This document shows positions 1,455 to 18,657 of a DNA stretch of 18,657 nt, piece by piece. The stretch is from a virus (lineage: Duplodnaviria; Heunggongvirae; Uroviricota; Caudoviricetes), in the IMG/VR virus record IMGVR_UViG_2529293015_000004, positions 1 to 18,657 of that record, one strand, 5' to 3'. The notes under the pieces are model-generated. The model searched no databases. It was not told the DNA's origin and saw only the letters and a list, made by a program, of their open reading frames with translations. How positions within the stretch are numbered: the stretch's first letter is position 1; each line of letters begins with the position of its first letter. Both the position numbers and the translations under genes were made by a program.

Positions 1455-1479
1455 AATGGCAGCCTCCTTTTGCTAATTT

Positions 1480-1570
1480 AAGGAGCTACCGCGTGAGGTC
1501 TCAATCTCAATGGCGGTAGCACTGACTGGGTTGAGACTACCGGCGCAAAAGGGAACCGGCCTGCCTTTCG
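1480..1570 (-). ncRNA. Structured leader upstream of icd/ant with antisense elements; candidate c4-like antisense RNA
   Basis: Nested inverted repeats (gctaccgc 1485-1492 / gcggtagc 1513-1520; ggtctcaatc 1495-1504 / ttgagac 1531-1537); 1545-1566 (gcaaaagggaaccggcctgcc) is near-complementary, in the transcript, to the icd ribosome-binding region (1460-1475); a second direct copy of ggtctcaatc lies at 1687-1696. Boundaries are approximate. Confidence 0.3.
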
Positions 1571-1639
1571 GCAGCCCAGCCAGCACTACCATTGATCTCT
1601 GAGCTAAACGCTACGTATGGCTGTGCGATGGCATGACAC

Positions 1640-1663
1640 AAAAAAAAGACGCTTTTGGCGTCT
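1640..1663 (-). terminator. Rho-independent terminator downstream of pacB
   Basis: On the minus strand: stem agacgc/gcgtct with 5-nt loop, followed by a run of 8 U (complement of A8 at 1640-1647). Confidence 0.5.
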
Positions 1664-1794
1664 GTGTCGCCTTTTGCATTATCCGGGGTCTCAATCCCGG
1701 CACCCATTTTAATGAGGTGCCTGATAAGCATAAACCGAAAATGCCTCAAGGCGCAAGAGGTCAGGTTCAATGTAACATCGGCAGTTAAAAAACA

Positions 1795-1811
1795 CAATTT
1801 ATTAGAGCAAA
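1795..1811 (-). promoter_or_regulatory. C1-type operator-like site (15/17 to ATTGCTCTAATAAATTT) at the pacB stop, upstream of the antirepressor module
   Basis: Plus strand reads caatttattagagcaaa, which is the reverse complement of the consensus with two edge mismatches. Confidence 0.45.
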
Positions 1812-1814
1812 TAT

Positions 1815-3299
1815 TCATTCATTAAGCCATGCCAGAGCTTCATCAACCTGCGCTTCGTCTTCGACGCTAAGCACTTCATCCTGGGGAACATAATCCGCCA
1901 GCATAGCGAAACAATATGTATCCCAATGGTCTGGTGAGTGCAGGTTGAGTTTTTTCTTCATATCCTCCTTACTCATCACCTTCCATTGACCTGCGGAGTT
2001 AATCCCTACAGGGATTTTCGACGCTTCCTCAATAGTTTCATTACCCTTATCCAGTCTCATACGACCAGATTTTACGGCCTCTGCGGCTTGAACGTTGGCA
2101 TAAGCACGTTTATCAAAGTACAGGCTCTTATCTTCACGGCTATGCATCTTTTTACCCCAGCGTATACGCTGTACGGTAATACCATAATACTCGTACATCA
2201 GATCCGCCGTTGCTTTACCCAGGCCATCGCCGTCTATCGCTATGGTGATATTTGGGAATCGCTCAGGATTACATTCTGCGAAAATTTTGGCGGCAAGCTG
2301 CGTTTCTGTAACGTCTGTGTATTCCAGCATTCGATAGTTGATTACACGGCGTTTATTTCGCTGGCCGGACACCATCATGATATTGATAACGGACTTATCC
2401 CGTCCCGTACCACCAGCAACGTCCACACATGCAAGCCAGCCCCATCCTTTGGCAATCTTGACTTTCCGCCGCGTTGCGCGTTCAACCTCATCACGTCCAA
2501 GAAGGAAGCCATCCTGTGATTTAGGGAATAGGCCGCGTACCTTAATCATGTACATAGGGTTATCACGCCCGCCGTACTCCGCCAGCTTCATTTTGATAAA
2601 TGCTGGCGTTACCAGCGGTGATTCCTCACTGTTAAGCGTGATCGCCGTATAAACGCCATCAGGGTTACCAGGACGCTTGGCCAGTTTATGGTGTGTATCG
2701 TAGAAATAGCCGCTTGGGCGTGTAGGCTGTGACAGCAATAAGATGCGGTTATCCTGTCCAGTAAGAGCACCGGTGATGATACCGAAAGCTCTATCACTGA
2801 CACCGGAGGCTTCATCGATAATATACAGAAGATGATCTGCGTGTTCACCGGCGAGAGCTTCTTCACTTCCCAGACGAAAGCCCTTCGGTACTACAGTCCA
2901 TACACCTTTACCAGTAACCTCATAGAAAGCGGTTTCTGTCAGAACAAAATAATCAGCAAGCCATGGGAAACGGCTGGTGGCAGTAGCCCAGTTTATCTTG
3001 ATGTACTTGAATATACCGGTCATTACCTGCTGAATTTTGTTCGCAACGATAATAGCGCGGGCACCGGGATACATGATTATGAACAACATGATCATGATAG
3101 AAGTCATGTCTGATTTCCCGGTACCGTGACCAGACGAAACAGATGTCTTGCTACCCTGTTCCTGCACAGACTCAATAATCAGATCCTGCTGCCAGGTAGG
3201 TGTTTTGCCGAACAAAACATCAGCGGCCGCAATCCAGTCATAACGATATAGCGCCACCAGCTCGCGCCAACGTGGATCCGTTACGCAACTTCTGGCCAT
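1815..3299 (-). CDS. pacB: Terminase large subunit (PacB-like, 494 aa)
   Basis: 494-aa ORF immediately downstream of and overlapping pacA (ATGA at 3299); position and size match P1 PacB as recalled; no terminase motifs were individually verified. Confidence 0.8.
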
Positions 3300-4492
3300 T
3301 AATCATCATCCCCGTATAGCTTGCGGGTAACTTCTTCGTCTTCCTCCTCGTCTTCGTCCAAGTCTTGTTCCAGCCATGGGTCGTTTGATACACCTTCAGT
3401 ATCAACATCTCCATAACCGCCTGTATCAACGATATCGGCGATTTCTTCCCTACGCTGCTCAATCCACAATGCGGCATCGGCGCGGCGGTTGGCGGCCCGT
3501 TCTCGCGCAACTTTGTCCAGATCTTCAAGAGAAGGGCCACCGACGGCTGTTTGCCTTTCCTCATCATCGGTATTTGTCTTAGGAGCACGCAGATCGGCTT
3601 TGATTTGCTCCAGCATCAGGGGCGGCACTTTTCCACCATGCGCCTCGATGAATTCAGCTGCTTCCAGCACTGACCAGTTATTTTCACGCTTTCGTTCGTA
3701 TGCCAGCTTAACAATGCCAGCTTGCCCCATAGACAAAGCGTGCTTTTCCGCCTCCCGGCTTTCTTTTCGATAGTTATTCCGGATGCTGTAAATGGTGTTG
3801 ATCAGGCTGCTTATCTGCGCGGAACAGCTGTTTAGCATGCTCGCGATACGGTATTCAGGCGGAGTACCTTCTTCATCGTCTTTTTGCTGATCGCGCATTT
3901 CCTGCACCAGGCGAATACACGTATCCCTGGCGTTCTCCAGCATAAGGAGATGAGAAAGAGACTTTTCAAGAAGAGTGGTTTCCAGAACATCGGCCCCGGA
4001 CCGACGCAACATAGCGCGCGCGGCCTTCCGCGCTTCAACGTTATCTATCAGGTAATCGCCAGCTTCGAATTCAAAGCGTTCACCATCATCATCCAGGGTG
4101 TCGCGTTCCAGGCGATCACGTAAGGTCCGGTGGGCGCGGGTGATCACGTCATGATCATCTGAACGATCATTTATGCGCTTATTTTGGCGCTTCGCATTCT
4201 CGACTGCGGCACTGACAACGGCATTAACTCTCTGTTTTTCCGCTATTTCAGCCGCAATATGATCACCTGCATGTTGATCATTAGAGTGATCAATGATCAT
4301 GCTTTTTAGTGGCTTCCTGACTGGCTTATTTGGCTTGCGGCTGTCCGCAGTCCTAGTGTCTTCTTTGAAGGCACGGAGATAACGACGTGCGGTATTAGGG
4401 TTAAGATTAAACTCGGCGGCATACTGTGCGATGGTGTAACCACCATCTCGCGCCAGGCGAGCAAAATTCTTCTTGTGATCGTCCCAGGTCAC
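3299..4492 (-). CDS. pacA: Terminase small / pac-recognition subunit (PacA-like, 397 aa)
   Basis: 397-aa ORF with an N-terminal HTH-like segment ([21 protein letters not shown]) and acidic C-terminus; contains the pac-like hexamer clusters internally; size matches P1 PacA as recalled. Confidence 0.75.
4141..4299. other. pac-like packaging site: seven TGATCA/GATC hexamers in clusters of 3 (4141-4170) and 4 (4260-4299)
   Basis: Hexamers at 4141, 4152 and 4164 on one side and 4260, 4275, 4287 and 4294 on the other, about 90 bp apart, inside pacA; the span (~159 bp) and 3+4 arrangement match the described P1 pac site. Confidence 0.6.
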
Positions 4493-4577
4493 TTATGCTT
4501 CCTTTCGTAAAAACTCTTTTTGACGCGAGGGTAACGAAAGTCACATGTCAAAAGGCCCGGAACGGGCAAGCAATCAA

Positions 4578-5030
4578 TCAGATACGTGCGGATGTGGCAT
4601 TACCGTAATGACGGTGCTGACGGGCCACCTTATTGAAAAGTTGACGCGCCATTACCCAAGGCTGGTGCTCCCGGCGTTCCTTTTCGTCCTGCGTCATATA
4701 GAGTTCGTTCTGGAGTTTTTCATCAAACCGGCGCGGCGCGCGGCTGCGGCGAAAGAATTCAGGATTCAAAGAGTGGATCTGAAATCTACGTGGGCGTGTA
4801 CTGTCATCAATCAAAACAGACGAATACTTAGACACAGCGATAGCCTTTAAGCGCAGATAAACGTCGCGCTTATCGACATCCAGATGCGGGTATTCCTTTT
4901 CAAGGATTGCTGCGAGTTCTTTCGCTGATAGAAGAGACTTAGTGCGGATCATGTAATCCGCAATCTCATACGATGTTATTCGTGAGTGATTTATTTCCAT
5001 GAAGTGGCGTCCCTGCCAGTTAAGTAACAT
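4578..5030 (-). CDS. 150-aa phage protein in the position of the P1 late-promoter activator (Lpa / gene 10)
   Basis: ORF directly upstream of pacA on the same strand, with an operator-like site upstream; assignment is by synteny and size only. Confidence 0.4.
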   Translation of the reverse strand: MLLNWQGRHFMEINHSRITSYEIADYMIRTKSLLSAKELAAILEKEYPHLDVDKRDVYLRLKAIAVSKYSSVLIDDSTRPRRFQIHSLNPEFFRRSRAPRRFDEKLQNELYMTQDEKERREHQPWVMARQLFNKVARQHRHYGNATSARI

Positions 5031-5100
5031 CCTGTCACCTACTGATTAGCCCATGTCAACTAATCAACGTGGAATATAATACCCTCTATTAAATAAATAG

Positions 5101-5117
5101 CAACACATTAGAGCAAT
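5101..5117 (-). promoter_or_regulatory. C1-type operator-like site (13/17; core ATTGCTCTAAT exact) upstream of the Lpa-like gene
   Basis: Plus strand caacacattagagcaat; lies about 70-90 bp upstream of the 4578-5030 gene start. Confidence 0.4.
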
Positions 5118-5118
5118 T

Positions 5119-6162
5119 TTATCTAACGCTCGACGAATGACTTGTGATAACGCCGACTCCAAGCGCGTAATCAAAGAACAATCGTTGATGCATCGCCAGC
5201 CTACCGTGCGTCTTCTCCCAATTATCGCGGTCACGCTCAATATCACGCTGGCATGACTGGCACAGAGGAATTGCGTAAATGTCATGCGCGCATAATCGAC
5301 TATGACGAACGATATAAGGCGTAATGTGAGCGCCAGCTCCCGCCGCTCCACACCCACAACATGGACGTGAAGCAACAAAGTCCATGTACTCAGGTAATTT
5401 TAGCGATTGCAGTTTTGGTATTTTGAAATGCGCCATGCCAGGGTCGGAGTCAACATCCACAGGGCATACTTTTGCACGCATCGGCGCGGCGCGTTCTTCC
5501 ATCATCTGAACATATGCTGTAGCGCGATCGTCATACGGGCGAATATCCGCCTCTTTCAGAGGCCCGCTATCCTGCGTTGCAGTCTTAATCTTATTTATTG
5601 ATATACGGCAGACTTCTTCCGGCATCAGGTGCATCATGTCGCGCATGAAAGCCCACCAGCACAGTTCCTGAATACTTAAATCATGGCCATCTGAAAACCC
5701 CATTTCCTGACGGGCGACATCCAGTATCCAGTTAACGCGATTATTATGCAGCGTTTCTTTCAGCTCATTAAAACCACGCATCCGGTAATGGTTATCGTGA
5801 TGCCAGCACAACAACACCGCGCTATTGTCTCGTTCAGCGTGGACAATATGGTTGTCACACCAACTACGATCTGCGGTCTGGCATTGCCCCTCTTTCCTGC
5901 GCAACCACGCCACCAGCGAGTCAATTCCACCAATACGGCGAAACAGTTCATCGCTGTTAAAAAACGGCTGCAACGCCTCATTTGTTGCCATGGTTTGCTC
6001 GGAAACAACGAGGCCGTCGTCCATGTGCTCGATCAACTCACGCGGCACCGGCTCCATAATAAATTTACGGCCAGCCTCCACCAGCTTTCTGACTTCCTGA
6101 TCCACTTTGAATGTGGCGACGCCAAGCTCTTTTTGTACAAAGGGAGTAATTACGGCTTTCAC
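5119..6162 (-). CDS. 347-aa phage protein with HNH-like motif and Cys-rich C-terminus (PdcB-like position)
   Basis: Motif ...[25 protein letters not shown]... resembles an HNH nuclease core; C-terminus has ...RPCCGCG...H...C..C..C. Confidence 0.5.
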
Positions 6163-6189
6163 ATCACACCTTTCATCACTGATTGGGCT

Positions 6190-6369
6190 TTATCTGCTGC
6201 CCGGCATTCTCTGTTTAAGCACAACCATTTCCTGACGGCATAACACAGCAATAGCGGTCCTGGCACCAATTTGCTTACCAACCAGGTATTGCTTTACCTC
6301 GCGGCGACTCACGCCATCAAGAAGCATCTTTAACGCTTCACGGGACAACTTGTTGTATTTACGTGCCAT
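6190..6369 (-). CDS. Small protein (~59 aa from the ATG at 6369; PdcA-like position)
   Basis: ORF between doc and the 347-aa gene; the ATG at 6369-6367 avoids overlap with doc; basic, possibly HTH-like. Confidence 0.35.
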   Translation of the reverse strand: MARKYNKLSREALKMLLDGVSRREVKQYLVGKQIGARTAIAVLCRQEMVVLKQRMPGSR

Positions 6370-6373
6370 TAAT

Positions 6374-6754
6374 CTACTCCGCAGAACCATACAATCTACG
6401 TAACGTGTCGGCGACAGAAGATACAGATATCTCTCCGGTCGCAGCCTCTACGGTAAGGTCTGCCAGTTCAGGTGAATCAAATACCTGCACCCCATTACGG
6501 CGTAGAAATAGCAGCGCACTGTTTAGCGCGGTACGCTTATTGGCATCATTGAATATATGCCCTCTCGCTGTAGCCACCAGGTAGGTGGCAGAGACTTCGA
6601 AAAGGTCGGTGATCTCTTCGTAGGCAACTCTGGCCTGAACTCTCCCGATAATGGCCTCTGCCCTACCCGGATCTGACATTCCCGGCAGGCCGCCGTAGCG
6701 GCTTATATTCGCATCATGAAGCGCAATAAGTTCTTCCGGTGATATATGCCTCAT
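6374..6754 (-). CDS. doc: Doc toxin (Fic/Doc family kinase), 126 aa
   Basis: 126 aa with the Doc/Fic motif HIFNDANKR; immediately downstream of and overlapping the 73-aa Phd-like gene; sequence is recognised as essentially P1 Doc (from memory). Confidence 0.9.
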
Positions 6755-6975
6755 TATCGGTTAACCAGTTCCTTGTTGGTGGAGTCCAGGGTGTCAAACA
6801 GGGATGCAAATTCAGCATCCAGCGCCGCTTTTTTGTAGGCTTCGAAAGTAGCCTTGCTGACAATTACTGCTGGCTCACGGCCTCTGCGGGTGATTTCAAC
6901 CTCTTCCCCGGCCTCAACATTGTTGAGCACTTCAGAAAGATTGCCGCGCGCGGTACGGAAGTTAATGGATTGCAT
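6754..6975 (-). CDS. phd: Phd antitoxin, 73 aa
   Basis: 73-aa [44 protein letters not shown]..., recognised as Phd; GAGG Shine-Dalgarno 6 nt upstream; stop overlaps doc start. Confidence 0.85.
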
Positions 6976-6984
6976 AAATACCTC

Positions 6985-7012
6985 GTGTACTCGTTATGTG
7001 TACACAATTATA
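6985..7012 (-). promoter_or_regulatory. phd-doc promoter/operator: -10 TATAAT (rev-comp of 7007-7012) followed by palindrome TGTGTACACA (6997-7006) and a GTGTAC half-site (6985-6990)
   Basis: Perfect 10-bp palindrome between the -10 hexamer and the Shine-Dalgarno, a typical autorepression operator position. Confidence 0.45.
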
Positions 7013-7151
7013 AACTTCACAGGCATAAAGCACCAGCACTTTGCGGCTTAACAAAACTCCAGGCAGGTCATTCATAGCCTAATGTCTGAACTGTTAAAGC
7101 CACCAAGTTGTTGTAGAATCACATCCAATTACATAAGCCTGAAATAAGTGG

Positions 7152-8714
7152 ATGAAAATGACAAGTATTCAACAACGTGCAGAGCTTCATCGTCAAATCT
7201 GGCAAATTGCTAACGATGTCAGGGGTTCGGTCGATGGATGGGATTTTAAGCAATACGTTCTGGGCGCACTTTTCTACCGTTTTATCAGCGAAAATTTTTC
7301 CAGCTATATTGAAGCCGGTGATGACAGTATCTGTTATGCGAAACTGGATGACAGCGTAATTACTGATGACATTAAAGACGATGCCATCAAAACCAAAGGC
7401 TACTTCATCTATCCAAGCCAGCTTTTCTGCAACGTAGCTGCGAAAGCAAATACCAATGACAGACTGAATGCAGATTTAAACAGTATCTTCGTTGCTATCG
7501 AAAGTTCTGCTTACGGTTATCCTTCAGAAGCTGACATCAAAGGTTTGTTTGCTGATTTCGATACCACCAGTAACCGCCTGGGTAACACCGTTAAAGATAA
7601 AAATGCCCGCCTGGCTGCGGTTCTGAAAGGGGTTGAAGGGTTAAAACTTGGTGACTTCAACGAACATCAGATTGACCTGTTCGGTGATGCCTATGAGTTC
7701 CTGATTTCTAACTATGCGGCAAATGCCGGTAAGTCAGGCGGTGAGTTCTTTACACCGCAGCACGTCTCTAAGCTGATTGCACAACTGGCTATGCACGGGC
7801 AGACCAGCGTTAACAAAATCTACGACCCGGCAGCGGGTTCCGGCTCACTGTTGTTGCAGGCGAAAAAACAGTTTGATAACCACATCATCGAAGAAGGCTT
7901 TTTCGGTCAGGAAATCAACCATACGACCTATAACCTGGCGCGTATGAACATGTTTTTGCACAATATCAACTACGACAAGTTTGATATCAAGCTGGGTAAT
8001 ACACTGACTGAGCCGCACTTCAGAGATGAAAAACCGTTTGACGCCATCGTATCTAACCCACCGTATTCGGTGAAATGGATTGGCAGCGATGACCCGACGC
8101 TGATTAACGATGAACGTTTTGCCCCGGCTGGCGTTCTGGCCCCCAAATCCAAAGCTGACTTTGCGTTTGTACTACATGCGCTGAACTATCTTTCGGCCAA
8201 AGGTCGTGCTGCGATTGTCTGCTTCCCGGGTATTTTTTACCGTGGCGGCGCAGAGCAGAAAATCCGTCAGTATCTGGTCGATAATAACTATGTCGAAACC
8301 ATAATTTCACTGGCACCGAACCTGTTCTTTGGCACCACCATTGCAGTAAACATTCTGGTGCTGTCTAAGCATAAAACGGATACCAAAGTTCAGTTTATTG
8401 ACGCCAGCGAACTGTTCAAAAAAGAGACTAACAACAATATCCTGACCGACGCCCATATCGAACAGATTATGCAGGTATTTGCCAGCAAGGAAGATGTTGC
8501 TCATCTGGCGAAATCTGTCGCGTTTGAAGCCGTTGTAGCGAATGACTATAACCTGTCGGTGAGCAGTTATGTGGAAGTGAAAGATAACCGCGAAATTATC
8601 GATATTGCTGAGCTGAATGCGGAACTGAAAACCACGGTCAGCAAAATCGACCAGTTGCGTAAAGATATTGATGCGATTGTAGCTGAAATTGAAGGCTGCG
8701 AGGTGCAGAAATGA
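7152..8714 (+). CDS. hsdM: Type I R-M DNA methyltransferase subunit HsdM (520 aa)
   Basis: AdoMet motif [10 protein letters not shown] and catalytic NPPY (VSNPPYS); stop overlaps the hsdS start (ATGA at 8711-8714). Confidence 0.9.
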
Positions 8715-9913
8715 GCGAGTTAAGTTATCTGGAAAAATTGCTGGATGGGATTGAGGTTGAGTGGAAAACACTAGGCAGTATAGCTGAACTAAAGCGAGGC
8801 ACATCAATTACAAAAAAAGATGTTATTGATGGAACCATCCCCGTAGTCGCTGGCGGACGTACACCAGCTTATTATCATAATACTAGTAATCGCGACGGAC
8901 AAACAATTGTTATCGCAGGTTCTGGTGCGTATGCGGGATTCGTTAGTTGGTGGGAGGAACCAATTTTCGTATCGGATGCATTTACTGTAAAACCTCATAA
9001 TATTTTGTTACCACGATATTGCTATCATTTTTTGATGAATATGCAACAACAACTCCATGAGTTTAAGAGTGGTGGTGGTGTTCCGCATGTTTATCCACGT
9101 GATGTATCACCTATTTTGATACCAATCCCCTGCCCGGATACCCCAGAAAAATCCCTTGCCATCCAGTCTGAAATCGTGCGGATTCTGGATAAATTTACTG
9201 CACTTACCGCTGAGCTTACCGCTGAGCTTAACATGCGTAAAAAACAGTACAACTACTATCGTGACCAGTTGTTGAGTTTTAAAGAGGGTGAGGTTGAGTG
9301 GAAGACTTTGGGGGAAATTGGAGATTTTACATATGGATATGCAGCCAAAGCCATGGATTCAGGAGATGCCCGTTTCGTGAGAATTACTGACATAAATAAA
9401 GACGGGAAGCTATCGAAAGAAAACCCAATGTACGTTGAATTAAATGAGGAAAATGAGAAATATACCTTAGACAAAAATGATTTACTCATGGCAAGAACTG
9501 GGGCAACCTTTGGTAAAACAATGATTTTTGAAGAAGATTATCCAGCAGTATACGCTGGTTTTTTAATAAAGTTGAACCTAAATAAAACGATTATTAATGC
9601 CAAATATTACTGGCACTTTGCACAAAGTGATTTTTTTTGGGAACAGGCTAATAAATTAGTATCTGGTGGTGGGCAACCACAGTTTAATGCTAATGCACTG
9701 AAACAAGTCAGAGTACCTATTCCATACCCATCTCACCCTCAAAAATCTTTAGACGAACAGGGGCGTATTGTGGATATTCTGGATAAGTTTGATGCAATCG
9801 CAGCTTCCATCACCGAAGGTCTCCCGCGTGAAATCGAGTTGCGCCAGAAACAATACGAGTACTATCGTGATTTACTGTTCAGTTTCCCAAAACCTGAAAC
9901 TGTCAGTAATTAA
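8711..9913 (+). CDS. hsdS: Type I R-M specificity subunit HsdS (400 aa), two target-recognition domains
   Basis: Duplicated conserved regions (ILDKF...[15 protein letters not shown] and ILDKF...[15 protein letters not shown]); repeated EVEWKTLG at the start of each half; central TAELTAEL repeat. Confidence 0.85.
9203..9226 (+). repeat. Two tandem copies of 12-bp unit CTTACCGCTGAG (plus a 4-nt partial third copy to 9230) in the hsdS central conserved region, encoding LTAE-LTAE
   Basis: Read directly: cttaccgctgag cttaccgctgag ctta. Confidence 0.85.
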
Positions 9914-10034
9914 TTGACCGTTGCTACCGACCGGGCCACCTTAACATCCGGTCTGTATATAGACTATTTTTTACGCGCCGGAAGTCACTCTTAACGCCCT
10001 TCCGGCCCTTGCCAGACGGCACAAAGGATGCGCT

Positions 10035-13000
10035 ATGACTCATCAGACACACACCATTGCTGAATCCAATAACTTTATCGTCCTTGATAAGTACATCAAA
10101 GCTGAGCAAACAGGCGACAGCTATCAGAGCGAATCGGACCTGGAACGTGAACTAATTCAGGACCTGCGGAATCAGGGCTATGAATTTATACCCGTAAAAT
10201 CACAGTCAGCGATGCTGGCCAACGTTCGGGAACAGCTTCAGAACCTCAATGGTGTGGTGTTTAATGACAGCGAGTGGCGGCGTTTCACGGAGCAATATCT
10301 GGACAACCCGAGTGATGGTATTCTGGATAAAACCCGTAAAATCCATATCGACTATATCTGCGACTTTATTTTTGACGACGGGCGTCTTGAGAACATCTAT
10401 CTGATCGATAAAAAGAATCTCATGCGCAACAAAGTGCAGATTATCCAGCAGTTTGAACAGGCAGGTTCTCACGCTAACCGTTATGACGTAACTATCCTGG
10501 TTAATGGCTTGCCTCTGGTACAAATCGAACTGAAAAAGCGCGGCGTGGCGATTCGTGAGGCTTTCAACCAGATACATCGTTACAGTAAAGAGAGTTTTAA
10601 CAGCGAAAATTCCCTGTTTAAATATCTGCAACTGTTTGTCATTTCTAATGGCACCGATACCCGTTACTTTGCCAACACCACAAAGCGCGATAAAAATAGT
10701 TTTGACTTCACCATGAACTGGGCGAAATCAGACAACACGCTGATTAAAGACCTCAACGACTTTACCGCTACCTTTTTCCAGAAACATACTCTGCTGAATG
10801 TTCTGGTGAACTACAGCGTGTTTGACAGTAGTCAGACGCTACTGGTGATGCGACCGTACCAGATTGCAGCTACCGAACGAATCTTATGGAAAATCAACAG
10901 CTCCTATAAAGCGAAAAACTGGTCTAACCCCGAAAGCGGTGGCTTTATCTGGCACACCACTGGTTCCGGTAAAACACTGACCAGCTTTAAAGCCGCGCGT
11001 CTGGCAACTGAACTGGACTTTATTGATAAAGTCTTCTTCGTGGTCGACAGGAAAGACCTCGATTACCAGACGATGAAGGAATATCAGCGTTTTTCGCCAG
11101 ATAGTGTTAACGGCTCGGAAAATACAGCAGGTCTTAAACGAAATCTGGATAAGGACGATAACAAAATTATCGTCACCACTATTCAGAAACTTAATAACCT
11201 GATGAAAGCAGAAAGCGACCTGCCTGTATACAATCAGCAAGTGGTGTTTATATTTGATGAATGCCACCGCAGCCAGTTTGGAGAAGCGCAGAAAAACCTG
11301 AAGAAGAAATTCAAACGCTATTATCAGTTTGGTTTTACCGGCACACCTATTTTCCCGGAAAACGCTTTAGGCTCAGAAACAACCGCCAGCGTATTTGGTC
11401 GTGAATTGCATTCGTATGTAATTACCGATGCGATTCGTGACGAAAAAGTGCTCAAATTCAAGGTGGACTACAACGATGTGCGGCCACAGTTTAAGTCTTT
11501 AGAGACAGAAACTGACGAGAAAAAACTGAGTGCGGCTGAAAATCAGCAGGCGTTTCTTCATCCCATGCGTATTCAGGAAATCACGCAATATATCCTGAAC
11601 AACTTCCGCCAGAAAACCCACCGTACTTTCCCTGGTTCCAAAGGTTTTAATGCCATGCTGGCAGTAAGCAGCGTGGATGCTGCAAAAGCCTATTATGCGA
11701 CGTTTAAACGGTTACAAGAGGAAGCCGCTAATAAATCGGCTACCTATAAACCGCTGCGTATTGCGACAATCTTCTCCTTTGCCGCCAATGAAGAACAAAA
11801 TGCCATTGGTGAAATTTCCGATGAAACTTTTGATACCAGCGCAATGGACAGCAGTGCTAAAGAGTTTCTGGACGCTGCAATTCGTGAATATAACAGCCAT
11901 TTTAAAACTAACTTTAGCACCGACAGTAACGGTTTTCAGAACTACTATCGTGATTTAGCCCAGCGGGTTAAAAATCAGGATATCGATCTGCTAATTGTCG
12001 TGGGGATGTTCTTAACCGGCTTCGATGCTCCAACATTGAACACGCTATTCGTCGATAAAAACTTACGTTATCACGGCCTGATGCAGGCATTTTCCCGCAC
12101 TAACCGCATTTATGACGCCACTAAAACCTTCGGTAATATCGTCACTTTCCGGGATCTGGAACGCTCAACTATTGATGCCATAACGCTGTTTGGTGACAAA
12201 AACACCAAAAATGTGGTGTTAGAAAAGAGTTATACAGAGTATATGGAAGGCTTTACTGATGCTGCTACAGGTGAAGCTAAACGCGGCTTCATGACAGTAG
12301 TTTCAGAACTGGAACAACGGTTCCCTGACCCTACCAGTATTGAAAGTGAAAAAGAGAAGAAAGACTTCGTTAAACTGTTTGGCGAATACCTGCGTGCCGA
12401 GAACATCCTGCAAAACTATGATGAATTTGCCACGCTAAAAGCCCTGCAACAAATCGATCTTAGCGATCCTGTTGCGGTAGAAAAATTCAAAGCAGAACAT
12501 TATGTGGATGATGAAAAGTTCGCTGAATTGCAAACAATTCGTCTCCCTGCTGATCGCAAGATTCAGGATTATCGTTCTGCCTATAACGATATTCGCGACT
12601 GGCAGCGCCGTGAGAAAGAAGCTGAGAAAAAAGAGAAATCAACCACTGACTGGGATGACGTAGTTTTTGAGGTCGATTTGCTGAAGTCTCAGGAAATAAA
12701 CCTGGATTATATCCTTGGACTGATTTTCGAACACAACAGACAAAATAAAGGCAAGGGCGAAATGATCGAAGAGGTCAAACGCTTAATTCGTTCAAGTCTA
12801 GGGAACCGTGCTAAAGAGGGCCTGGTGGTCGATTTTATTCAGCAAACGAACCTGGATGATTTACCGGACAAAGCCAGCATCATTGACGCATTCTTTACGT
12901 TTGCTCAACGCGAACAGAAACGTGAAGCAGAAGCATTGATAAAAGAAGAAAATCTCAATGAAGAGGCGGCGAAACGCTATATTCGCACATCTTTAAAACG

Positions 13001-13151
13001 CGAATACGCCACCGAAAATGGTACAGGATTAAATGATACATTACCAAAACTTAGTCCGTTAAATCCGCAATATAAAACGAAAAAACAGACGGTTTTCCAG
13101 AAAATCGTCTCGTTTATTGAGAAGTTTAAAGGCGTAGGCGGAAAAATATAG
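10035..13151 (+). CDS. hsdR: Type I R-M restriction subunit HsdR (1038 aa)
   Basis: N-terminal PD-(D/E)xK-like region ([19 protein letters not shown]); helicase motifs [32 protein letters not shown]; separated from hsdS by 121 bp, consistent with its own promoter. Confidence 0.9.
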
Positions 13152-13230
13152 CCCAATTCGTGTTTTTCTTGCGGGTTCTTAATTAAACCCGCAAGAGCTC
13201 GTGGGGTTCCAAATGGCTAATATACTCCCC

Positions 13231-13317
13231 TTACCCATGCGCGACGATGCCGCCAAAAGTGATAGAGAACAGCCAGAAATAGATCGCGGCCATAATGATT
13301 TTGAATGCCGTGTTCAT
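13231..13317 (-). CDS. Candidate small hydrophobic peptide (28 aa, MNTAFKIIMAAIYFWLFSITFGGIVAHG)
   Basis: ATG preceded by AGGAG at 8-nt spacing; single predicted transmembrane-like helix; operator-like site and promoter-like elements ~85 bp upstream; below the ORF-track size cut-off. Confidence 0.3.
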   Translation of the reverse strand: MNTAFKIIMAAIYFWLFSITFGGIVAHG

Positions 13318-13345
13318 ATTTTCAGCTCCTGTGATTGATTGGATA

Positions 13346-13376
13346 CATGCCGCGTCTTGCGGCATGTTTTTATTTT
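13346..13376 (+). terminator. Rho-independent terminator (stem catgccgc/gcggcatg, loop gtctt, then tttttatttt); probably ends the hsdR transcript
   Basis: 8-bp perfect stem followed by a T-run on the plus strand, ~195 bp after the hsdR stop; lies in the 5' leader of the minus-strand peptide ORF. Confidence 0.5.
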
Positions 13377-13399
13377 CACTTTCTCTGTTTTAAAAATCA

Positions 13400-13416
13400 A
13401 GATTTATTAGGGCAAT
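13400..13416 (-). promoter_or_regulatory. C1-type operator-like site (15/17) overlapping the stop of the HAD-like gene, upstream of the small peptide ORF
   Basis: Plus strand agatttattagggcaat; on the minus strand ATTGCCCTAATAAATCT, followed 17 bp later by TAAAAC (possible -10). Confidence 0.4.
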
Positions 13417-13922
13417 TATTGTTGATGGAGAAGCGCATTTTCATACTCCCTGACCATTAACGTAAGTACGCCGTGTCTCCTGAAAACACGCGCCACTTCA
13501 ATCTTATCTTCCAGCGCGAACGCAATTTTACTTAGACCAATTTTCTTAAGGAGATCAATCTTTGCTGGGCCGTCATTTCTGTCATCGGTGGCAGGACGCA
13601 TAGATAGCAAAGGCTCAGCCCCATTTGTTACGTGCTTACGCAACCAAGCTCGTGTTTTATCCCTGGCTATCTCACAGCGCCCGGTTACAAACCAGAGCGT
13701 GTAAATGCCGGACAACTGGCGCACCATATCAATAACTGGAGTGATGGGAGCATCAGTGTCACAGGCAAGGTTAAACTCGTTCCAGTGCTCTGTTAATGCA
13801 CCTTTGCCAGGTGGTGGAAGTAAATGCAGCCTGTCTTCCGTTGCCTCTGATATCGTTCCATCAATATCTACTATGACGATGTACGGACGTTCCTGGTGTG
13901 CGTGTTTATTGAAAATACTCAA
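13416..13922 (-). CDS. HAD-superfamily phosphatase-like protein (168 aa)
   Basis: HAD motif I DIDGT near the N-terminus (IVIVDIDGTISE), downstream T and K motifs (FVTGR, KIDLLKK). Confidence 0.55.
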   Translation of the reverse strand: MSIFNKHAHQERPYIVIVDIDGTISEATEDRLHLLPPPGKGALTEHWNEFNLACDTDAPITPVIDMVRQLSGIYTLWFVTGRCEIARDKTRAWLRKHVTNGAEPLLSMRPATDDRNDGPAKIDLLKKIGLSKIAFALEDKIEVARVFRRHGVLTLMVREYENALLHQQ

Positions 13923-13994
13923 ATGCCCTCCTCATTGGACGAAAAAAATGCTGGTGGGCGCACTCCACCAGCATTAAAAGTGACACTGTAACTG

Positions 13995-15257
13995 TCAGCG
14001 AACATAAATAGTGCCGCCGTTCTCTTTTTCCCATGCATCGCTACGTGCATAGCAAACATCGAGAAGTCTTCTTGCCGCTGTTTCCTCTAAACCCAATTCG
14101 ACAACCAACTGCTCATGACGGCGGGTAACCACATCAAACAGGGTATGCAGCCCTTTAGCTGCCAGATCATCAATAAATTCCGGTTCGAACGGCAGCTCTG
14201 CCTCTGCCAACATAACCTCTTGCGCCCACTCAACTCGACGGACCAGTTCCGGGCGGCGGCTTTCCATCTCTTTACAGATCAATTCATGGAAGAACTCTAC
14301 CCAACCTTCCGGCTGGAACTCGCGGAAAATGGCCAACGGCTGGAAGTTTGGCATCAACCATTCGTTGATCCGGATATCAATGGCATAGCCCATGTCGCAG
14401 CAGAACTGATAAGCAAAGTCCAGCTTAGAAACGATATAAGGACGCTCGTTATTGAACTCTTTAGGCGATGAGATCCCATAAGCCAGGAGGCGCGGGAAGA
14501 AGGAGATTTGCCCTAACGTCGGATGAAGTTTGCTTGCAGGGAAACGGCGCTCAGTAATGCCATACATTTCCTTCTTGAGCGTCGCAAATTTGGCATTCTC
14601 ATTAACCAGCGCGGTAACCTCTGCTTTTTTATTAGCAAATGCCACGCGCGCCTCGCTTGCATCTTTAATAGTTTTTTTGAGCTGTTGGTTAAGGTCGGCG
14701 ACCTGCTTACGCAGTTCCTGTCGCTCGCTTTTAGCTTTGTTATAGCGTTTCTCAAGGTTAAAAGGATCAAGTTTCATGATCTCTTTATATTGAGATTTTA
14801 GCGTTGAAATCTGTGAGTTCCGCAGTTCAACCATCGCGGTCATTTCATTGAGTTTTGTTTCCAGCTCAATGCTTATACGTTCGGCATTATCAGCACGCTG
14901 GTTGGCGTCATGCGTCGCATCGTCGATCGCGTCCTGTTGCTGGCGTTTCAAATGTTCAATTTCCAGCTGAAGCTCTTCAATTTCTTTACCCTTCAGACCG
15001 AGATCCAACTGCATATTTTCAGCTGCATCTACCAGGGAGTTATGGCTATCAGCTTCTGCGTTATAAACATCAATAAGCTGTGCGTGAAGCATCTCCGCTG
15101 ACTGAACCGCATTATCAAAAAAACGTGCTGTGAGGTCATCACAACTAACGCGGCGTTGCGCGGCCCGGATGTTCTGGATAATGGCCGGGATACCGGCATT
15201 CAGGACATCAGGGATACATACATTTTCGATTGATTGGTTTTGTGCTGAAGTGCTCAT
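13995..15257 (-). CDS. Hypothetical protein (420 aa): long central coiled-coil-like region and a C-terminal domain of unknown function
   Basis: Long ORF translationally coupled to the upstream 72-aa gene (TGAaATG); heptad-like charged segments at roughly residues 80-220; no recognisable catalytic motif. Confidence 0.6.
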   Translation of the reverse strand: MSTSAQNQSIENVCIPDVLNAGIPAIIQNIRAAQRRVSCDDLTARFFDNAVQSAEMLHAQLIDVYNAEADSHNSLVDAAENMQLDLGLKGKEIEELQLEIEHLKRQQQDAIDDATHDANQRADNAERISIELETKLNEMTAMVELRNSQISTLKSQYKEIMKLDPFNLEKRYNKAKSERQELRKQVADLNQQLKKTIKDASEARVAFANKKAEVTALVNENAKFATLKKEMYGITERRFPASKLHPTLGQISFFPRLLAYGISSPKEFNNERPYIVSKLDFAYQFCCDMGYAIDIRINEWLMPNFQPLAIFREFQPEGWVEFFHELICKEMESRRPELVRRVEWAQEVMLAEAELPFEPEFIDDLAAKGLHTLFDVVTRRHEQLVVELGLEETAARRLLDVCYARSDAWEKENGGTIYVR

Positions 15258-15258
15258 T

Positions 15259-15477
15259 TCAAAGTTCCGTATTAGCTTGTGCTTCGGTCATTTTTCCTAA
15301 GTATGAAGGAGGAAGGACTACGCAATTTGTATCCAGTCCCTCACCTATGGCAGCCTGTAAAATTCTGGCTAAGGTGAGTCTCTTGTTGCGATACCTGGTG
15401 ATGACATGCCTGATACCGCCGGTCGGCGTAACAAAGGCGATCAGCCAGTAGTGATATTTCCGTCGGAATGGCCACAT
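15259..15477 (-). CDS. Hypothetical small protein (72 aa), first gene of an operator-controlled operon
   Basis: ATG preceded by AAGGTG at 5 nt; operator-like site immediately upstream; stop adjacent to the start of the 420-aa gene. Confidence 0.5.
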   Translation of the reverse strand: MWPFRRKYHYWLIAFVTPTGGIRHVITRYRNKRLTLARILQAAIGEGLDTNCVVLPPSYLGKMTEAQANTEL

Positions 15478-15490
15478 AGTGCACCTTGTA

Positions 15491-15507
15491 GATTGCTCTA
15501 ATAAAAA
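15491..15507 (+). promoter_or_regulatory. C1-type operator-like site (14/17: attgctctaataaaaaa)
   Basis: Directly upstream of the Shine-Dalgarno/ATG of the 72-aa gene; forms an inverted pair with the site at 15541-15557. Confidence 0.45.
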
Positions 15508-15527
15508 ACGTGATGAGTGTACATCAC
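15502..15527 (-). terminator. Rho-independent terminator (stem cgtgatg/catcacg, 6-nt loop, U6) ending the upstream operon
   Basis: On the minus strand the 7-bp perfect stem is followed by a run of 6 U; lies between the two operator-like sites. Confidence 0.5.
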
Positions 15528-15540
15528 GCTTTAAAAATAT

Positions 15541-15557
15541 GGAATTATTAGAGCAAT
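15541..15557 (-). promoter_or_regulatory. C1-type operator-like site (14/17), inverted relative to 15491-15507
   Basis: Plus strand ggaattattagagcaat; on the minus strand ATTGCTCTAATAATTCC, then a 17-bp spacer and TAAAGC. Confidence 0.45.
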
Positions 15558-15558
15558 A

Positions 15559-16260
15559 TTATTCTGATTCTCGCTCAAAAAATGAGCTGATAAGGGGAAG
15601 CCAATCCTCTGACACTTCGCGAGGTCGCGGTTTGCCGTGGAAAAAGATTATTCGGCAGTCTTTTGGTAATGCCCCATTCCCCCTGGAGTAACGCGCGCTC
15701 GCATATTTTGAACCAGGTTCCACAACATCGGCCTTGTAACTTACAAACCATCCTGGATACAGATCCTGAAATGCTGGTGTATCATCGCCCATAACCTTTC
15801 GTAAGAACCCCTGGTCACCCCAACACTCAGTAGTGACACAACGAGAAATCCAACCTTCCGGATCTTGCCAGAATGAACTCCAGATATGCGCTTTAACACT
15901 ATTTGGTATCCACAGGGCACCGCTGCCACGATATTGTGGATGGTAAAAATCCCTAAGCATGGTGAAGCTGGTTGGTGGATGCTCTAGGATTGGGCGTATA
16001 TCACCGGCAATAACCGTGTCCAAATCCAGATAGAACAGATCATCGGTTATATCCGGTCGGAACAACTCGATTTTCGCCCACCAGCCACGGCACTTTTGCC
16101 ACTGGTTGATCAATGGGACAACTTTGACGCCAGGTACATGTAAACGCTTCAGGTCTGTCAGGCAAATAATTTCATAGCCTTTTGGCAGTTGATTAACCAG
16201 CCACTGCACATCGGAAGCGTTATAGTCACCACCAGAGCGAAAAACTAAAGCAATCTTCAT
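15559..16260 (-). CDS. Putative GT-A fold glycosyltransferase-like protein (233 aa)
   Basis: DxD motif in a hydrophobic context ([13 protein letters not shown]) and a C-terminal FHGKPRP resembling the GT8 H-x-G-x-x-KPW region; ATGA coupling to the upstream phosphatase gene. Confidence 0.5.
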
Positions 16261-16934
16261 TCTGCACCATCACCTTTCACTTTCATCAATGTCAGGTTTC
16301 CGCAAAATACGGCACCAGTGTCGATATACTGCTGATTCCAGAATGTCTTCGGGCTTTTCACCGGAGTGTGACCAAAGATAAAACGATCTGCGCCCGAAAT
16401 TTCGCCACCAATATCATCCATCGAATCACTGATACGCTCGCGCGCCCAGACAACGTTGAAAAGCGGCACCTCCTTACCGAATTGGTATTCATTATCCGGA
16501 TAGTCGGCATGGGCTATAACGATAGTTTCTTGCCCGGTGTTCAACTCAATGATATAGGGCAGACGCTTTACCAGCTCCACCAGCGCCCAGGCTAATATTT
16601 CCTGATCAGTGTCCAGCATGAAGAACCATTGTCCGCCATTCATTAGCCAGTTATTCACGTTGCCATCTGGACTTAACGCATCAATCATCAGCCGCTCATG
16701 GTTCCCCATCACTGCCCTGAACCAGGGCATCTGCAATAGTTCCAGACATTCGACATTTTCAGTACCGCGATCGATAAGGTCGCCGACCGATATCAGTAAA
16801 TCCTGCGCCGGGTCAAAATCCACACGATGGAGTTCGGACATCAGTCTGGTGTAGCAACCATGCAGATCACCAACAACCCAGACATTCCTGTATTTGGTAC
16901 CGTCGATACGGTGATAAATTGTGGGTGCCATCAT
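16257..16934 (-). CDS. ppp: Lambda-type Ser/Thr protein phosphatase (metallophosphoesterase), about 225 aa
   Basis: Motifs GDLHG, GDLIDRG, GNHE; the likely start is one of the tandem ATGs at 16934/16931, which overlap the upstream gene's TGA (ATGATGG). Confidence 0.85.
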
Positions 16935-17557
16935 GTATTCTTCAGCCATTCTTTAAGAGTCATCTGCGGAATACCTCCCATTTTCCCGCATGAAACAACG
17001 TCAATCCGTTCACGCGCAGACTGGAATAACAAAGGCAGGTGACTTAGATTTTTTGGCGTGCCGCCGGAGTGAACGCGTGGTTCTTGTGTAGCGTCAACGC
17101 CCACCAGGGCGACATGTTTGAATCCGATATGGAAAGCCAGGTTCAGAGCACCATATGCACTATTGCCGCTGGCAATTTCATTCTCATCTTCGCAAAGTCC
17201 GAAATGAGCGGACCAGCGCCACGCCCACCACTCGGGAGAATTCGTATTTTTTGGCTCCATGCCGCGTTCAGCCACACGACGGAAGCACAGAACGCCATCT
17301 CTGACTTCACGTTCTTTAACATCGGGTAGTGCCATGCAATAACAAACACCACGGCGACGGCGGCCACGACCAACGCGCCGCATATTGTCTGGGGATGGAT
17401 CAAGGGTGAAAAAATAAGAAGCGCGGTTAAGCCAGTCGATGGCCCCATTGACCGCTATAATCGGCACTCCGCGCGGCGCAACAAAGTTTGCGGCGCTTGG
17501 GCCACTGCCGACGATAATAACGCGATCACTGCCTCTAAATTTATTCTTGGGAAACAT
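16931..17557 (-). CDS. Cst-II/MptE-like Rossmann-fold protein (208 aa), paralog B
   Basis: Motifs [27 protein letters not shown]...VALVGVD, paralleling sialyltransferase Cst-II (GNGPSL ... CN ... SG...LSGID) and MptE/DUF115-type proteins. Confidence 0.55.
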
Positions 17558-18117
17558 TGAATTGCACTGCTCCTACTTGCATTCAAAATATGTAAATCTG
17601 CGTGTTTTTTGCGGGTATCCAGGAACTGCTGTTGCCATTTTGAAATAGACACCTGCGTTGGATTCCGTAGTGCTTGAGGGTGCGCGCCATGCCAATGAAG
17701 GCCGTTTTGCAGAGAACAGTCATAGCCGACTAATACCACTACTTCAGCCCCTGATTCAGCAGCCAGACTGATAGCCTGCGCGCCGCTATTTACCCCTTCC
17801 GCCGGTCCACAATATCGCCTGTACTCCAACGAAAATGATTTCGCCGCCGCCAGGTTGGCTGTCACTTTGCGGAATCTCCCTCCCGGTATGGTGGATCCGT
17901 ATTGCTTCCACCATGACAAATCACCGGCGTATAAGGCATAAATGTCATCGAACATCTGCCAGGAATTGTTAACCGCGATGATTGAACAGCCAGTTTTTTC
18001 TATAGCAGCACAGTCCTCACGAGTGAGTGACGGACCGCTACCGACACAAAAAACAGTCCTAGTCGCCCTGGGTGGTATGTTCATTCTCAGCTGCAAATTC
18101 AGCCTCCAGGCGAGCAT
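17455..18117 (-). CDS. Cst-II/MptE-like Rossmann-fold protein, paralog A (start uncertain: 18117 or internal ATG at 18084)
   Basis: Motifs VFCVGSGPSL, IIAVNN, NSGAQAISLAAESGAEVVVLVGYD; overlaps paralog B by about 100 nt. Confidence 0.55.
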   Translation of the reverse strand: MLAWRLNLQLRMNIPPRATRTVFCVGSGPSLTREDCAAIEKTGCSIIAVNNSWQMFDDIYALYAGDLSWWKQYGSTIPGGRFRKVTANLAAAKSFSLEYRRYCGPAEGVNSGAQAISLAAESGAEVVVLVGYDCSLQNGLHWHGAHPQALRNPTQVSISKWQQQFLDTRKKHADLHILNASRSSAIQCFPRINLEAVIALLSSAVAQAPQTLLRRAECRL

Positions 18118-18214
18118 TCATTTCAGCGATTACCGGGTCCACTACAGCATCTGTTTCCTGTTCATTACGCGGCATGATCGATGCCAGCGATTCATAATTA
18201 GCCTTGGATGACAC
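18059..18214 (-). CDS. Candidate small acidic protein (~51 aa, GTG start)
   Basis: GGGAGA Shine-Dalgarno 7 nt upstream of GTG at 18214; below the ORF-track cut-off; overlaps the longest version of paralog A. Confidence 0.25.
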   Translation of the reverse strand: MSSKANYESLASIMPRNEQETDAVVDPVIAEMNARLEAEFAAENEHTTQGD

Positions 18215-18280
18215 GATTATTCTCCCGATGTTAATGTGCGCTATATCAAATGGCGCATATGCACTAATTAATTTATTATT

Positions 18281-18613
18281 TTAAGCAGCATACAACCACT
18301 TGTCGCCGTTCAATACATGCTCAATAGCCTCACCCTTTTTAAGGCTTATGTATTCCAGGATGGCGGTTATCGCTTGTTCTGCACCATACGCAAGAACGAC
18401 GTAGTAACCTTCCTCTCTAAGCCTGCGCATCCAGGCGATCTGCTCTTTCGTCGGGGCTTTACCATTTGGTTCTTTAAGCTCAATTCGCATGCCGTGATAA
18501 ATACCGCATGCTTTATCGAGACTCATGTCCGGATAACCTTTTTTCTGTCCTTCAGCCTTCATTTTCCCGGCGGTTGCTTTTGAACGTTTCCCTCCGTTAG
18601 GCGTTGCATGCAA
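18281..18613 (-). CDS. VRR-NUC-like (PD-(D/E)xK) nuclease domain protein, 110 aa
   Basis: G-YPD ... IELK ... EQIAWMRRL pattern typical of VRR-NUC domains. Confidence 0.5.
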   Translation of the reverse strand: MHATPNGGKRSKATAGKMKAEGQKKGYPDMSLDKACGIYHGMRIELKEPNGKAPTKEQIAWMRRLREEGYYVVLAYGAEQAITAILEYISLKKGEAIEHVLNGDKWLYAA

Positions 18614-18657
18614 CAGCTCATAGATGTCAGGGTGCTTGCGTTCGAAGTAATCAAAAA

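Follow-up and report, generated by a model that had tools for sequence, protein, structure and literature searches.

The pmgM–pmgQ region of a P1-like phage

Analysis of a stretch of 18,657 nucleotides (nt) of viral DNA (positions 1 to 18,657 of IMG/VR record IMGVR_UViG_2529293015_000004, referred to below as the window) revealed that it stems from a P1-like phage or phage-plasmid, and the present work concerns six genes at its far end, three of which, pmgO, pmgP and pmgQ, may together constitute a glycosylation module. Positions 13300-18657 are 98.4-98.8% identical at the nucleotide level, over their full length, to P1, P7, JL22, RCS47 and SJ46, and the best match of the whole window is phage vB_EcoM-673R5 (95% coverage, 96.9% identity). 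By synteny with the annotated P1 record, the six open reading frames (ORFs) correspond to P1 pmgM, pmgN, pmgO, pmgP, ppp and pmgQ. All of them lie on the minus strand, at the coordinates given in an original prediction that was made from the sequence alone. P1 is among the most-used phages in genetics, and about half of its genes are without a defined role. The region is not a new discovery: its annotation in P1 dates back two decades, and existing RefSeq/PHROGs labels name pmgO 'alpha-2,3-sialyltransferase' and pmgQ 'glycosyltransferase'; it is called 'putative morphogenetic' only for its position downstream of a late promoter. The genes are as follows (aa, amino acids):

18281..18657, continuing beyond the window end, minus strand: 3' part of pmgM (last 124 codons), VRR-NUC-like PD-(D/E)xK nuclease
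18059..18214, minus strand: pmgN, 51-aa ORF found in P1-like phages only
17455..18117, minus strand: pmgO, DUF115/MptE-like transferase (Cst-II/Maf-type Rossmann fold), paralog of PmgP
16931..17557, minus strand: pmgP, second DUF115/MptE-like transferase
16257..16949, minus strand: ppp, lambda-type PPP-family Ser/Thr phosphatase, between pmgP and pmgQ
15559..16260, minus strand: pmgQ, glycosyltransferase family 8 (GT8)-like (retaining, metal-dependent GT-A) glycosyltransferase, by fold and motifs

The overlapping stop and start codons that had been proposed for the entire operon are present at the four junctions from pmgN through pmgQ, whereas pmgM and pmgN are separated by a gap of 66 nt. The overlap of pmgN and pmgO measures 59 nt with the annotated ATG, that of pmgO and pmgP an unusual 103 nt, out of frame (17455-17557), and that of pmgP and ppp 19 nt, or ATGA if ppp starts at the ATG at 16934; the ppp/pmgQ junction is again an ATGA overlap. 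The ORF at 18281-18613 that had been put forward as a VRR-NUC gene is real, but it covers no more than the 3' part of pmgM, whose P1 product has 192 aa, and the gene does not start at the TTG at 18613.

The regulatory features of the unit are:

18258..18306, minus strand: PpmgN-like promoter and weak C1 operator Oppp, between pmgM and pmgN, from the P1 annotation by synteny
15492..15557, unstranded: end of the unit, a hairpin with U-run and two inverted C1-operator-like 17-mers, directly past the pmgQ stop
1795-1811, 13400-13416, 15492-15508 and 15541-15557: C1-operator-like 17-mers, the last two inverted round the hairpin

A promoter-like GCGACA-17-TAAAAT is found at 18306-18278. Oppp as read from the sequence carries 13 of 17 consensus matches, and its four mismatches place it outside our 3-mismatch search; the P1 record locates it in the pmgM-pmgN gap, with the predicted promoter PpmgN inside the pmgM 3' end. 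After pmgQ, the terminator-like hairpin (RNA fold of -26.9 kcal/mol, z of -8.3 against shuffles) is flanked by operator-like 17-mers at 15492-15508 (plus strand) and 15541-15557 (minus strand). This pair corresponds to OpmgRa/b in P1, which according to the P1 annotation controls the next unit, pmgR-pmgS. Four such 17-mers were retrieved by the 3-mismatch search from the whole window, where 0.14 would be expected by chance. Repressor sites thus stand at both ends of the transcription unit pmgN-pmgQ, which in P1 is also downstream of the late promoter LPpmgL (P1 record), a promoter beyond the window. The next genes downstream of pmgQ are pmgR, pmgS and pap.

Folds and linkage of PmgO, PmgP and PmgQ

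Structure models were made for PmgP and PmgQ. The PmgQ model (predicted local distance difference test score, pLDDT, of 94.4) retrieved mostly GT8-type glycosyltransferases among its top 50 Foldseek matches, with template modelling (TM) scores of 0.5-0.62. The best match is the Skp1 alpha-galactosyltransferase (GalT; 6mw5, E 8e-9), and glycogenin, GlyE, LgtC and WbbM were also found. Profile alignment places D79-L-D81 of PmgQ on the D-A-D of Skp1 GalT and glycogenin and on the D-S-D of GlyE, G148-D-Q150 on the GDQG of glycogenin, and F-H208-G-K-P-R-P on V-H-F-L-G-Q-T-K-P-W of glycogenin, in which the His is the second metal ligand of the GT8 motif. The residues of the DxD, GDQ and His motifs are invariant across 28 PmgQ relatives. 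The protein that had been described as DxD GT-A-like can hence be specified as GT8; neither an unrelated fold nor a failure of the motifs to align, the two outcomes named by the original prediction as counting against it, was encountered for PmgQ.

PmgQ resembles glycogenin, Skp1 GalT, GlyE and LgtC in its fold and in its DxD, GDQ and His-x-x-G-x-x-K-P motifs, and several of these enzymes act on protein-linked glycans, but it is shorter (233 aa), is 11-17% identical to them and is without a Pfam match at E<0.1. Against a Glyco_transf_8 cut-off of 24.3, scores of 15.6 and 20.5 bits were obtained for a PmgQ-like fusion protein and for a second GT8-like neighbour (c15-type), respectively. As it does not reach the Pfam gathering threshold, PmgQ represents a divergent GT8-like clade and is not a curated member of the family. 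An orphan PmgQ-like gene was observed between lpdA and acnB on an enterobacterial chromosome-like contig (L158, 10001-10633), with PmgO and PmgP not nearby; its product is named in sources as from Candidatus Pantoea floridensis.

PmgO and PmgP score 23.4 and 21.0 bits, respectively, against PF01973 (MptE-like), both under the cut-off of 34.6; this family is nevertheless matched at E<1e-3 by 26 of 32 PmgO relatives and 26 of 40 PmgP relatives, and some relatives exceed its threshold (e.g., P0212, 44.6 bits). PmgO also belongs to PHROG 4603 (E 4e-74). Aligned to each other with hhalign, the two families match at 98% (E 2.9e-13 over 162 columns), from which PmgO and PmgP appear to be distant paralogs. 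The GxGPS motif, an Asn after strand 2, an (N/T)-S-G helix cap and a GxD strand are invariant or near-invariant in both families. Queried as single sequences against those of the PDB, PmgO and PmgP gave chance matches only. With a PmgO profile, the GPSL and NSG...G-Y-D motifs align with Cst-II, a weak similarity (profile E 0.26-0.5); a PmgP profile search returned no match, and PmgP was placed in the Maf/Cst/MptE-like Rossmann-type fold by structure comparison only. The Cst-II/MptE-like signature and the paralogy that had been suggested for this pair are thus borne out by the hhalign result, the PF01973 profile matches and the fold of PmgP.

This fold serves CMP-sugar transferases and pyrophosphokinases alike, and the known members differ from PmgO and PmgP in several respects. 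The Maf flagellin glycosyltransferases (5mu5) carry additional domains and reach ~600 aa, while the ~200 aa of PmgO and PmgP amount to a minimal core with 17% identity to Maf, onto which the catalytic residues could not be mapped; moreover, the CMP-pseudaminic or CMP-legionaminic acid donors of Maf are, to our knowledge, not produced by E. coli K-12. Campylobacter Cst-I and Cst-II (CAZy GT42) have lipooligosaccharide (LOS) as their acceptor, and their similarity to PmgO is weak. An invariant His does occur downstream of the GxD strand (H141/H143 in PmgO, H173 in PmgP), but no alignment of these residues to His188 of Cst-II was obtained. The label 'alpha-2,3-sialyltransferase' was accordingly rejected as the function of PmgO, its donor and catalytic base not being established. 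Archaeal MptE, the namesake of PF01973 (8sd5), is a 6-hydroxymethyl-dihydropterin pyrophosphokinase, i.e., a pterin kinase with a folate/methanopterin context, and nothing pterin-related was seen in the neighbourhoods of the trio. PmgO relatives span residues ~20-202, and both annotated ends of PmgO are probably longer than the functional protein. The close relatives end ~12 residues earlier, and the PmgO tail may be non-functional read-through.

For the comparative analysis, loci were collected from species-representative genomes, IMG/VR and contig look-ups and were searched with profiles of the PmgO, PmgP and PmgQ families (O, P and Q below). A first scan of viral contigs for PmgP gave 80 P1-like contigs only, and it was rerun with an alignment excluding the P1-like variants. 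The resulting set comprises 54 lineages outside the P1 group, non-redundant at 90% identity, in which the genes of metagenomic loci are simple longest-ORF calls. PmgP relatives were found in prophages of many Proteobacteria, and a search of 1.84 billion cluster representatives, of which 607 matched at E<=1e-3, shows the PmgP family to be small. The trio occurs in phages of very different size, small HK97-like prophages, P1 and jumbo phages of 300 kb among them.

O, P and Q occur together in 35 of the 54 lineages, and P with Q in a further eight (8/54); most of the others are cut by contig ends. The genes of a phage locus nearly always share a strand, in varying order. In the Pantoea P1-like element (L011), where PmgP is 72% identical, the gene order is kept. 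Natural fusions join O to P (P0212), P to Q (P0221, P0289) and Q to P (P0269, P0312). The linkage and the fusions indicate that O, P and Q are one functional unit, and it is likely that they act jointly in the synthesis or transfer of a glycan.

Several enzymes that accompany the trio are of glycan type. An S-adenosylmethionine (SAM)-dependent methyltransferase lies inside the module in 13 of the 54 lineages and belongs to small-molecule or sugar types (Methyltransf_11/23/25, TylF). Extended seven-gene modules add a second GT8-like protein, a further methyltransferase and two weakly glycosyl- or sulfotransferase-like proteins, and one rhizobial group has a hexapeptide acyltransferase. On jumbo-phage contigs, a TylF-type sugar O-methyltransferase is fused to GT8 (L151, 10603-11922, Pfam-checked). 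The L153 protein and ORF373 of phage XacN1 (L154, 9630-10946) have the same length of ~430 aa as this fusion, the Pfam check having been applied to L151 only. Together, these partners make up a toolkit for assembling and tailoring glycans.

Candidate acceptors of the module

The recurrent neighbours of the trio are portal (22 loci), gp6-like connector (20), HK97-fold capsid (20), large terminase (TerL, 16), head-completion (11) and tail-completion (10) proteins, together with the prohead protease. In 28 of the 54 lineages, recognisable head, neck or tail genes are found no more than five genes away from the module, a count that is a lower bound because neighbours were labelled only if they belonged to recurrent families. 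The genes mostly follow the order TerL-portal-protease-capsid-[O-P-(methyltransferase)-Q]-connector-head completion. In 19 head-embedded loci that were checked, the module is separated from its flanking genes by median distances of 11 and -7.5 nt; gaps this close to zero imply co-transcription with the structural genes. In most of the other prophage loci, the module stands between the lysis genes and terminase, still within the late operon. P1 itself meets this pattern only partly, with a late promoter upstream and the module adjoining pmgR/pmgS. The genes had originally been judged 'not an obvious morphogenesis set', which does not hold outside P1, where the trio is usually embedded in a head-morphogenesis operon. 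In several head operons (L130-L132, L138 and L143; e.g., L130 5814-6203), we observed a conserved Ser/Thr/Ala/Asp-rich protein of 125-129 aa, without a Pfam match, whose gene separates that of the capsid protein from PmgO; it might serve as a decoration protein and as a substrate for glycosylation.

A second context is provided by chromosomal, apparently non-phage copies. In five Pseudescherichia loci (L013-L017; e.g., L014 2220-15338), O, P and Q are interleaved with genes for an inverse autotransporter of 1166 aa (IAT_beta and seven Big_1 domains), with PmgO 60 nt downstream, and for other Big_1 proteins. In Serratia plymuthica (L007, 4513-17785), two Big_1 genes directly follow a PmgO-like gene, P and Q being ~4 kb away; the same locus holds a lipoxygenase and a second PmgO copy. 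Such interleaving with invasin-type Big_1 genes is an independent pointer to protein acceptors. In the Xanthomonas jumbo phage XacN1, the trio (ORF375-373) is directly upstream of large proteins and tail-sheath genes. The virions of this phage contain at least two Schiff-positive glycoproteins, which its authors credited to other glycosyltransferases (PMC5852040).

We favour, at a probability of about 0.5, the reading that O, P and Q form a late-expressed cytoplasmic glycosylation module that acts on virion proteins, probably those of the head. In such a scheme, the two Maf/sialyltransferase-like enzymes and the retaining GT8 enzyme would be a soluble module for building and transferring glycans, transcribed with the late morphogenetic genes, and would place a short glycan on virion proteins, probably of the head, before or during assembly. 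One DUF115 enzyme might initiate on a protein side chain, as Maf does on flagellin, after which GT8 and the second DUF115 enzyme would extend the glycan; in relatives, the extra enzymes would tailor it with O-methyl or acyl groups. Some bacteria may have co-opted the module to modify invasin-type Ig-like surface proteins. In the P1-like phage studied here, the module is under its own predicted C1-repressible promoter and is dispensable for plaques. The folds, the conserved motifs of catalytic type, the paralogy of O and P, the linkage and fusions of the three genes and their genomic contexts are direct observations; the activity of the proteins as glycosyltransferases, a virion protein as the acceptor, the order of action and the sugar are inferred from them.

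Most demonstrations of virion glycosylation come from actinobacteriophages and giant viruses, and Freeman et al. (2023) reportedly described capsid and tail-tube glycosylation of the Che8/Corndog type. Cluster O mycobacteriophages such as Corndog encode an O-methyltransferase and glycosyltransferases inside the head operon, between portal and protease. Infected cells express these enzymes, but virions do not contain them, and a role in modifying the capsid has been proposed (PMC4351075). The layout of these cassettes recurs in the non-P1 relatives of O/P/Q, whereas the P1 module itself is outside the head operon. The relatives differ in their diderm hosts (among named records) and in combining a Maf/Cst-like pair with GT8, and O/P/Q is known from sequence; we know of no description of a Maf/Cst-like DUF115 pair with GT8 in actinophage cassettes, and nothing comparable has been described for P1. 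For the chromosomal loci, a parallel exists in the AAH/TibC heptosyltransferases and HMW1C, which glycosylate autotransporter adhesins in the cytoplasm. These too are soluble enzymes encoded beside a secreted adhesin, which resembles the Pseudescherichia and Serratia loci, although they belong to unrelated enzyme families, and the association of O/P/Q with adhesins is one of gene neighbourhood alone. What appears to be new here, as we infer it, is the O-P-Q trio as a conserved, sometimes fused, head-operon-associated glycosylation module.

All hosts in the named records are diderm (Proteobacteria, one Bacteroidota metagenome-assembled genome (MAG) and one Gemmatimonadota MAG), and it may be speculated that this fits a donor such as the cytidine monophosphate (CMP)-activated sugar CMP-Kdo. 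A wider proposal, which we offer tentatively and consider possible though doubtful, is that O/P/Q would be a hitherto undescribed protein-glycosylation system, widespread in phages of Gram-negative bacteria, that sugar-coats capsid or neck proteins and was borrowed by enterobacteria for invasin-type adhesins; its Maf/sialyltransferase-like pair may use a CMP-activated acidic sugar produced by every LPS-forming host, e.g., Kdo, and P1 virions would be glycosylated unnoticed. If true, a distinct system in phages of Gram-negative bacteria would be relevant to phage therapy, through immune recognition, the stability of phages in serum and their adherence to mucus, and would bear on the cryo-EM and proteomic interpretation of phage virions and on the glyco-engineering of particles, while the adhesin link would indicate an unrecognised bacterial route of protein glycosylation. 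If it fails, the region comprises dispensable accessory enzymes of a well-known phage. From the comparative data, five vaguely defined genes now yield a specific and cheaply testable hypothesis.

Literature searches (by gene names, by DUF115 with phage, and by capsid glycosylation) retrieved no functional study of these proteins; however, P1-wide surveys have been published. The published description of the P1 virion proteome does not list PmgO, PmgP or PmgQ as virion-associated (PMC9024508), an absence that fits enzymes rather than structural parts. Single-gene deletions in P1 caused no plaquing defect and left antirestriction unchanged (PMC9024508). CRISPR interference (CRISPRi) likewise classed pmgM, pmgO, pmgP, ppp and pmgQ as non-essential, and the table of that study takes non-essential calls for pmgL through pmgQ from the deletion survey (PMC10695390).

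Several observations weigh against virion-protein glycosylation. No glycosylated P1 virion protein has been reported, and the text of a 2026 paper on the P1 head structure contains neither 'glycos' nor 'extra density', the topic not being addressed there. Neither single deletion nor CRISPRi knockdown of pmgO, pmgP or pmgQ produced a plating defect. The P1 module is not beside the capsid gene, and its predicted promoter is C1-controlled. Some relatives, such as IME392, hold the module near DNA-metabolism genes. GT8 and Cst-type enzymes also build the cores of lipopolysaccharide (LPS) and LOS, so that the fold alone cannot pick the acceptor. Lastly, the sites between head genes and between lysis genes and terminase also house unrelated phage accessory genes.

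The point about LPS and LOS leads to the question as to whether the acceptor might instead be a glycoconjugate of the host envelope, such as the LPS core, modified during lytic growth. The P1 receptor is located in the LPS core, and such a modification in P1 could hide the receptors of the dying cell and of its debris, or prevent superinfection. This possibility gains from the LOS/LPS enzymes among the solved relatives (LgtC and WbbM for PmgQ, Cst-I and Cst-II for PmgP), from the uniformly diderm named hosts, and from the several prophages in which the module occupies the lysis-terminase junction, a common site of accessory genes. It is a live rival, although we consider it unlikely. The proximity of structural genes in 28 of 54 lineages and the near-zero gaps in 19 loci speak against it, since a module embedded in a head operon is expressed only late, when the outer membrane could hardly be remodelled in the time left. 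The chromosomal copies adjoin secreted Ig-like proteins and not LPS or capsule genes, and membrane-associated partners (flippase, Gtr-type) were not seen in the modules. The P1 unit, lying behind a C1 operator, should be silent in lysogens; lysogenic conversion in P1 was rejected for this C1 repression.

A more distant possibility, which we regard as improbable, is that PmgO and/or PmgP are pyrophosphokinases of the MptE or thiamine-pyrophosphokinase type that make or destroy a small molecule, such as an activated sugar or a signalling nucleotide, possibly in host takeover or anti-defence. The shared fold would allow this, but it sits poorly with the constant linkage and fusion to GT8, with the sugar-tailoring enzymes alongside, and with the head-operon and adhesin contexts, which it does not explain. 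PADLOC returned no match for any of the six proteins. Furthermore, D53 of PmgP falls at the position of Asn51 in Cst-II, as read by eye from 'TLDPS' against 'FYNPS'.

The leading idea of the original prediction, that the enzymes glycosylate or hypermodify phage DNA as an anti-restriction measure, seems less probable still. It has precedent, in that phages are known to glycosylate DNA and Mom of Mu is a late-expressed DNA modifier, and the module adjoins a nuclease gene in P1 and is near ligase and polymerase X genes in IME392. P1 DNA, however, is routinely cut by ordinary restriction enzymes. In none of the 54 loci is the module accompanied by a hydroxymethylcytosine (hmC) or hydroxymethyluracil (hmU) synthase, a TET enzyme or a DNA-type methyltransferase, and the association with adhesins would be left unexplained. 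The P1 single-gene knockouts, which by the essentiality table of the CRISPRi study include those of pmgO, pmgP and pmgQ, weigh against the idea, antirestriction being unchanged in them (PMC9024508).

Lineage-specific neighbours and other genes in the window

The original prediction had also grouped the nuclease and the phosphatase with the three transferases. That all five enzymes form one integrated, P1-specific pathway is very improbable: the P1-like genes are indeed adjacent, co-oriented and mostly translationally overlapped, in an order kept in distant P1-like elements such as that of Pantoea, but homologs of ppp, pmgM and pmgN were found within 10 kb of O/P/Q in none of the 54 non-P1 lineages (phmmer, E<1e-5), phage D6, a relative of P1, has ppp and no PmgP match, and the pmgM-pmgN gap holds the annotated C1 operator, with the predicted promoter in the pmgM 3' end. 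The comparative data largely refute such a pathway. Ppp, PmgM and PmgN were rejected as module members for this want of co-occurrence with O/P/Q outside the P1 lineage, and they are best regarded, on gene content, as lineage-specific neighbours with separate roles.

The assignment of Ppp as a lambda-type phosphatase is sound. It matches Metallophos at 59.3 bits (cut-off 21.5) and PHROG 246 (NinI-like, E 5e-113), its translation contains the motifs GDLHG, GDLIDRG and GNHE, and the P1 record gives 64% identity to the lambda phosphatase. Its closest NCBIfam models are PrpA/PrpB-type phosphatases, which it matches under the equivalog cut-offs, and this is the sole NCBIfam match among the six proteins. 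For PmgM, the proposed likeness to VRR-NUC nucleases stands, with GYPD...IELK (the PD...ELK motif) readable in the translation, although the score is borderline (22.2 bits for the partial protein and 21.2 bits for the full-length P1 copy, against a cut-off of 23.8). PmgM also matches PHROG 2363 (E 1.6e-83) and PHROG 5702, 'Holliday junction resolvase' (E 1.9e-27).

PmgN is assigned to PHROG 2350 (E 1.2e-37), with no match in Pfam, NCBIfam or PADLOC. In the CRISPRi study it was classed as essential (efficiency of plating of 1.4e-2), which conflicts with its harmless deletion, a conflict noted and left unexplained in that paper (PMC10695390). Knockdown of every gene downstream of pmgN was harmless, unlike that of pmgN itself.

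Elsewhere in the window, a complete type I restriction-modification system was identified on the plus strand at 7152-13151, comprising hsdM (520 aa), hsdS (400 aa) and hsdR (1038 aa, with an EcoR124-type C-terminus). It replaces P1 humD, lxr, hot, upfM-O and pmgT-V, and the same arrangement is present in vB_EcoM-673R5. At 124-1236 on the minus strand, in the position of the P1 c1 immunity region, a 370-aa protein with ORF6N and ANT/KilAC antirepressor domains suggests an immunity or antirepressor arrangement different from that of P1. The product of pmgS (13995-15257, 420 aa) is annotated as coiled-coil in P1 and gives sub-threshold Pfam matches only, and that of pap (13416-13922) matches the haloacid dehalogenase (HAD)-type phosphatase domain of polynucleotide kinase-phosphatase (PF25109, 44.7 bits), not an 'acid phosphatase'.

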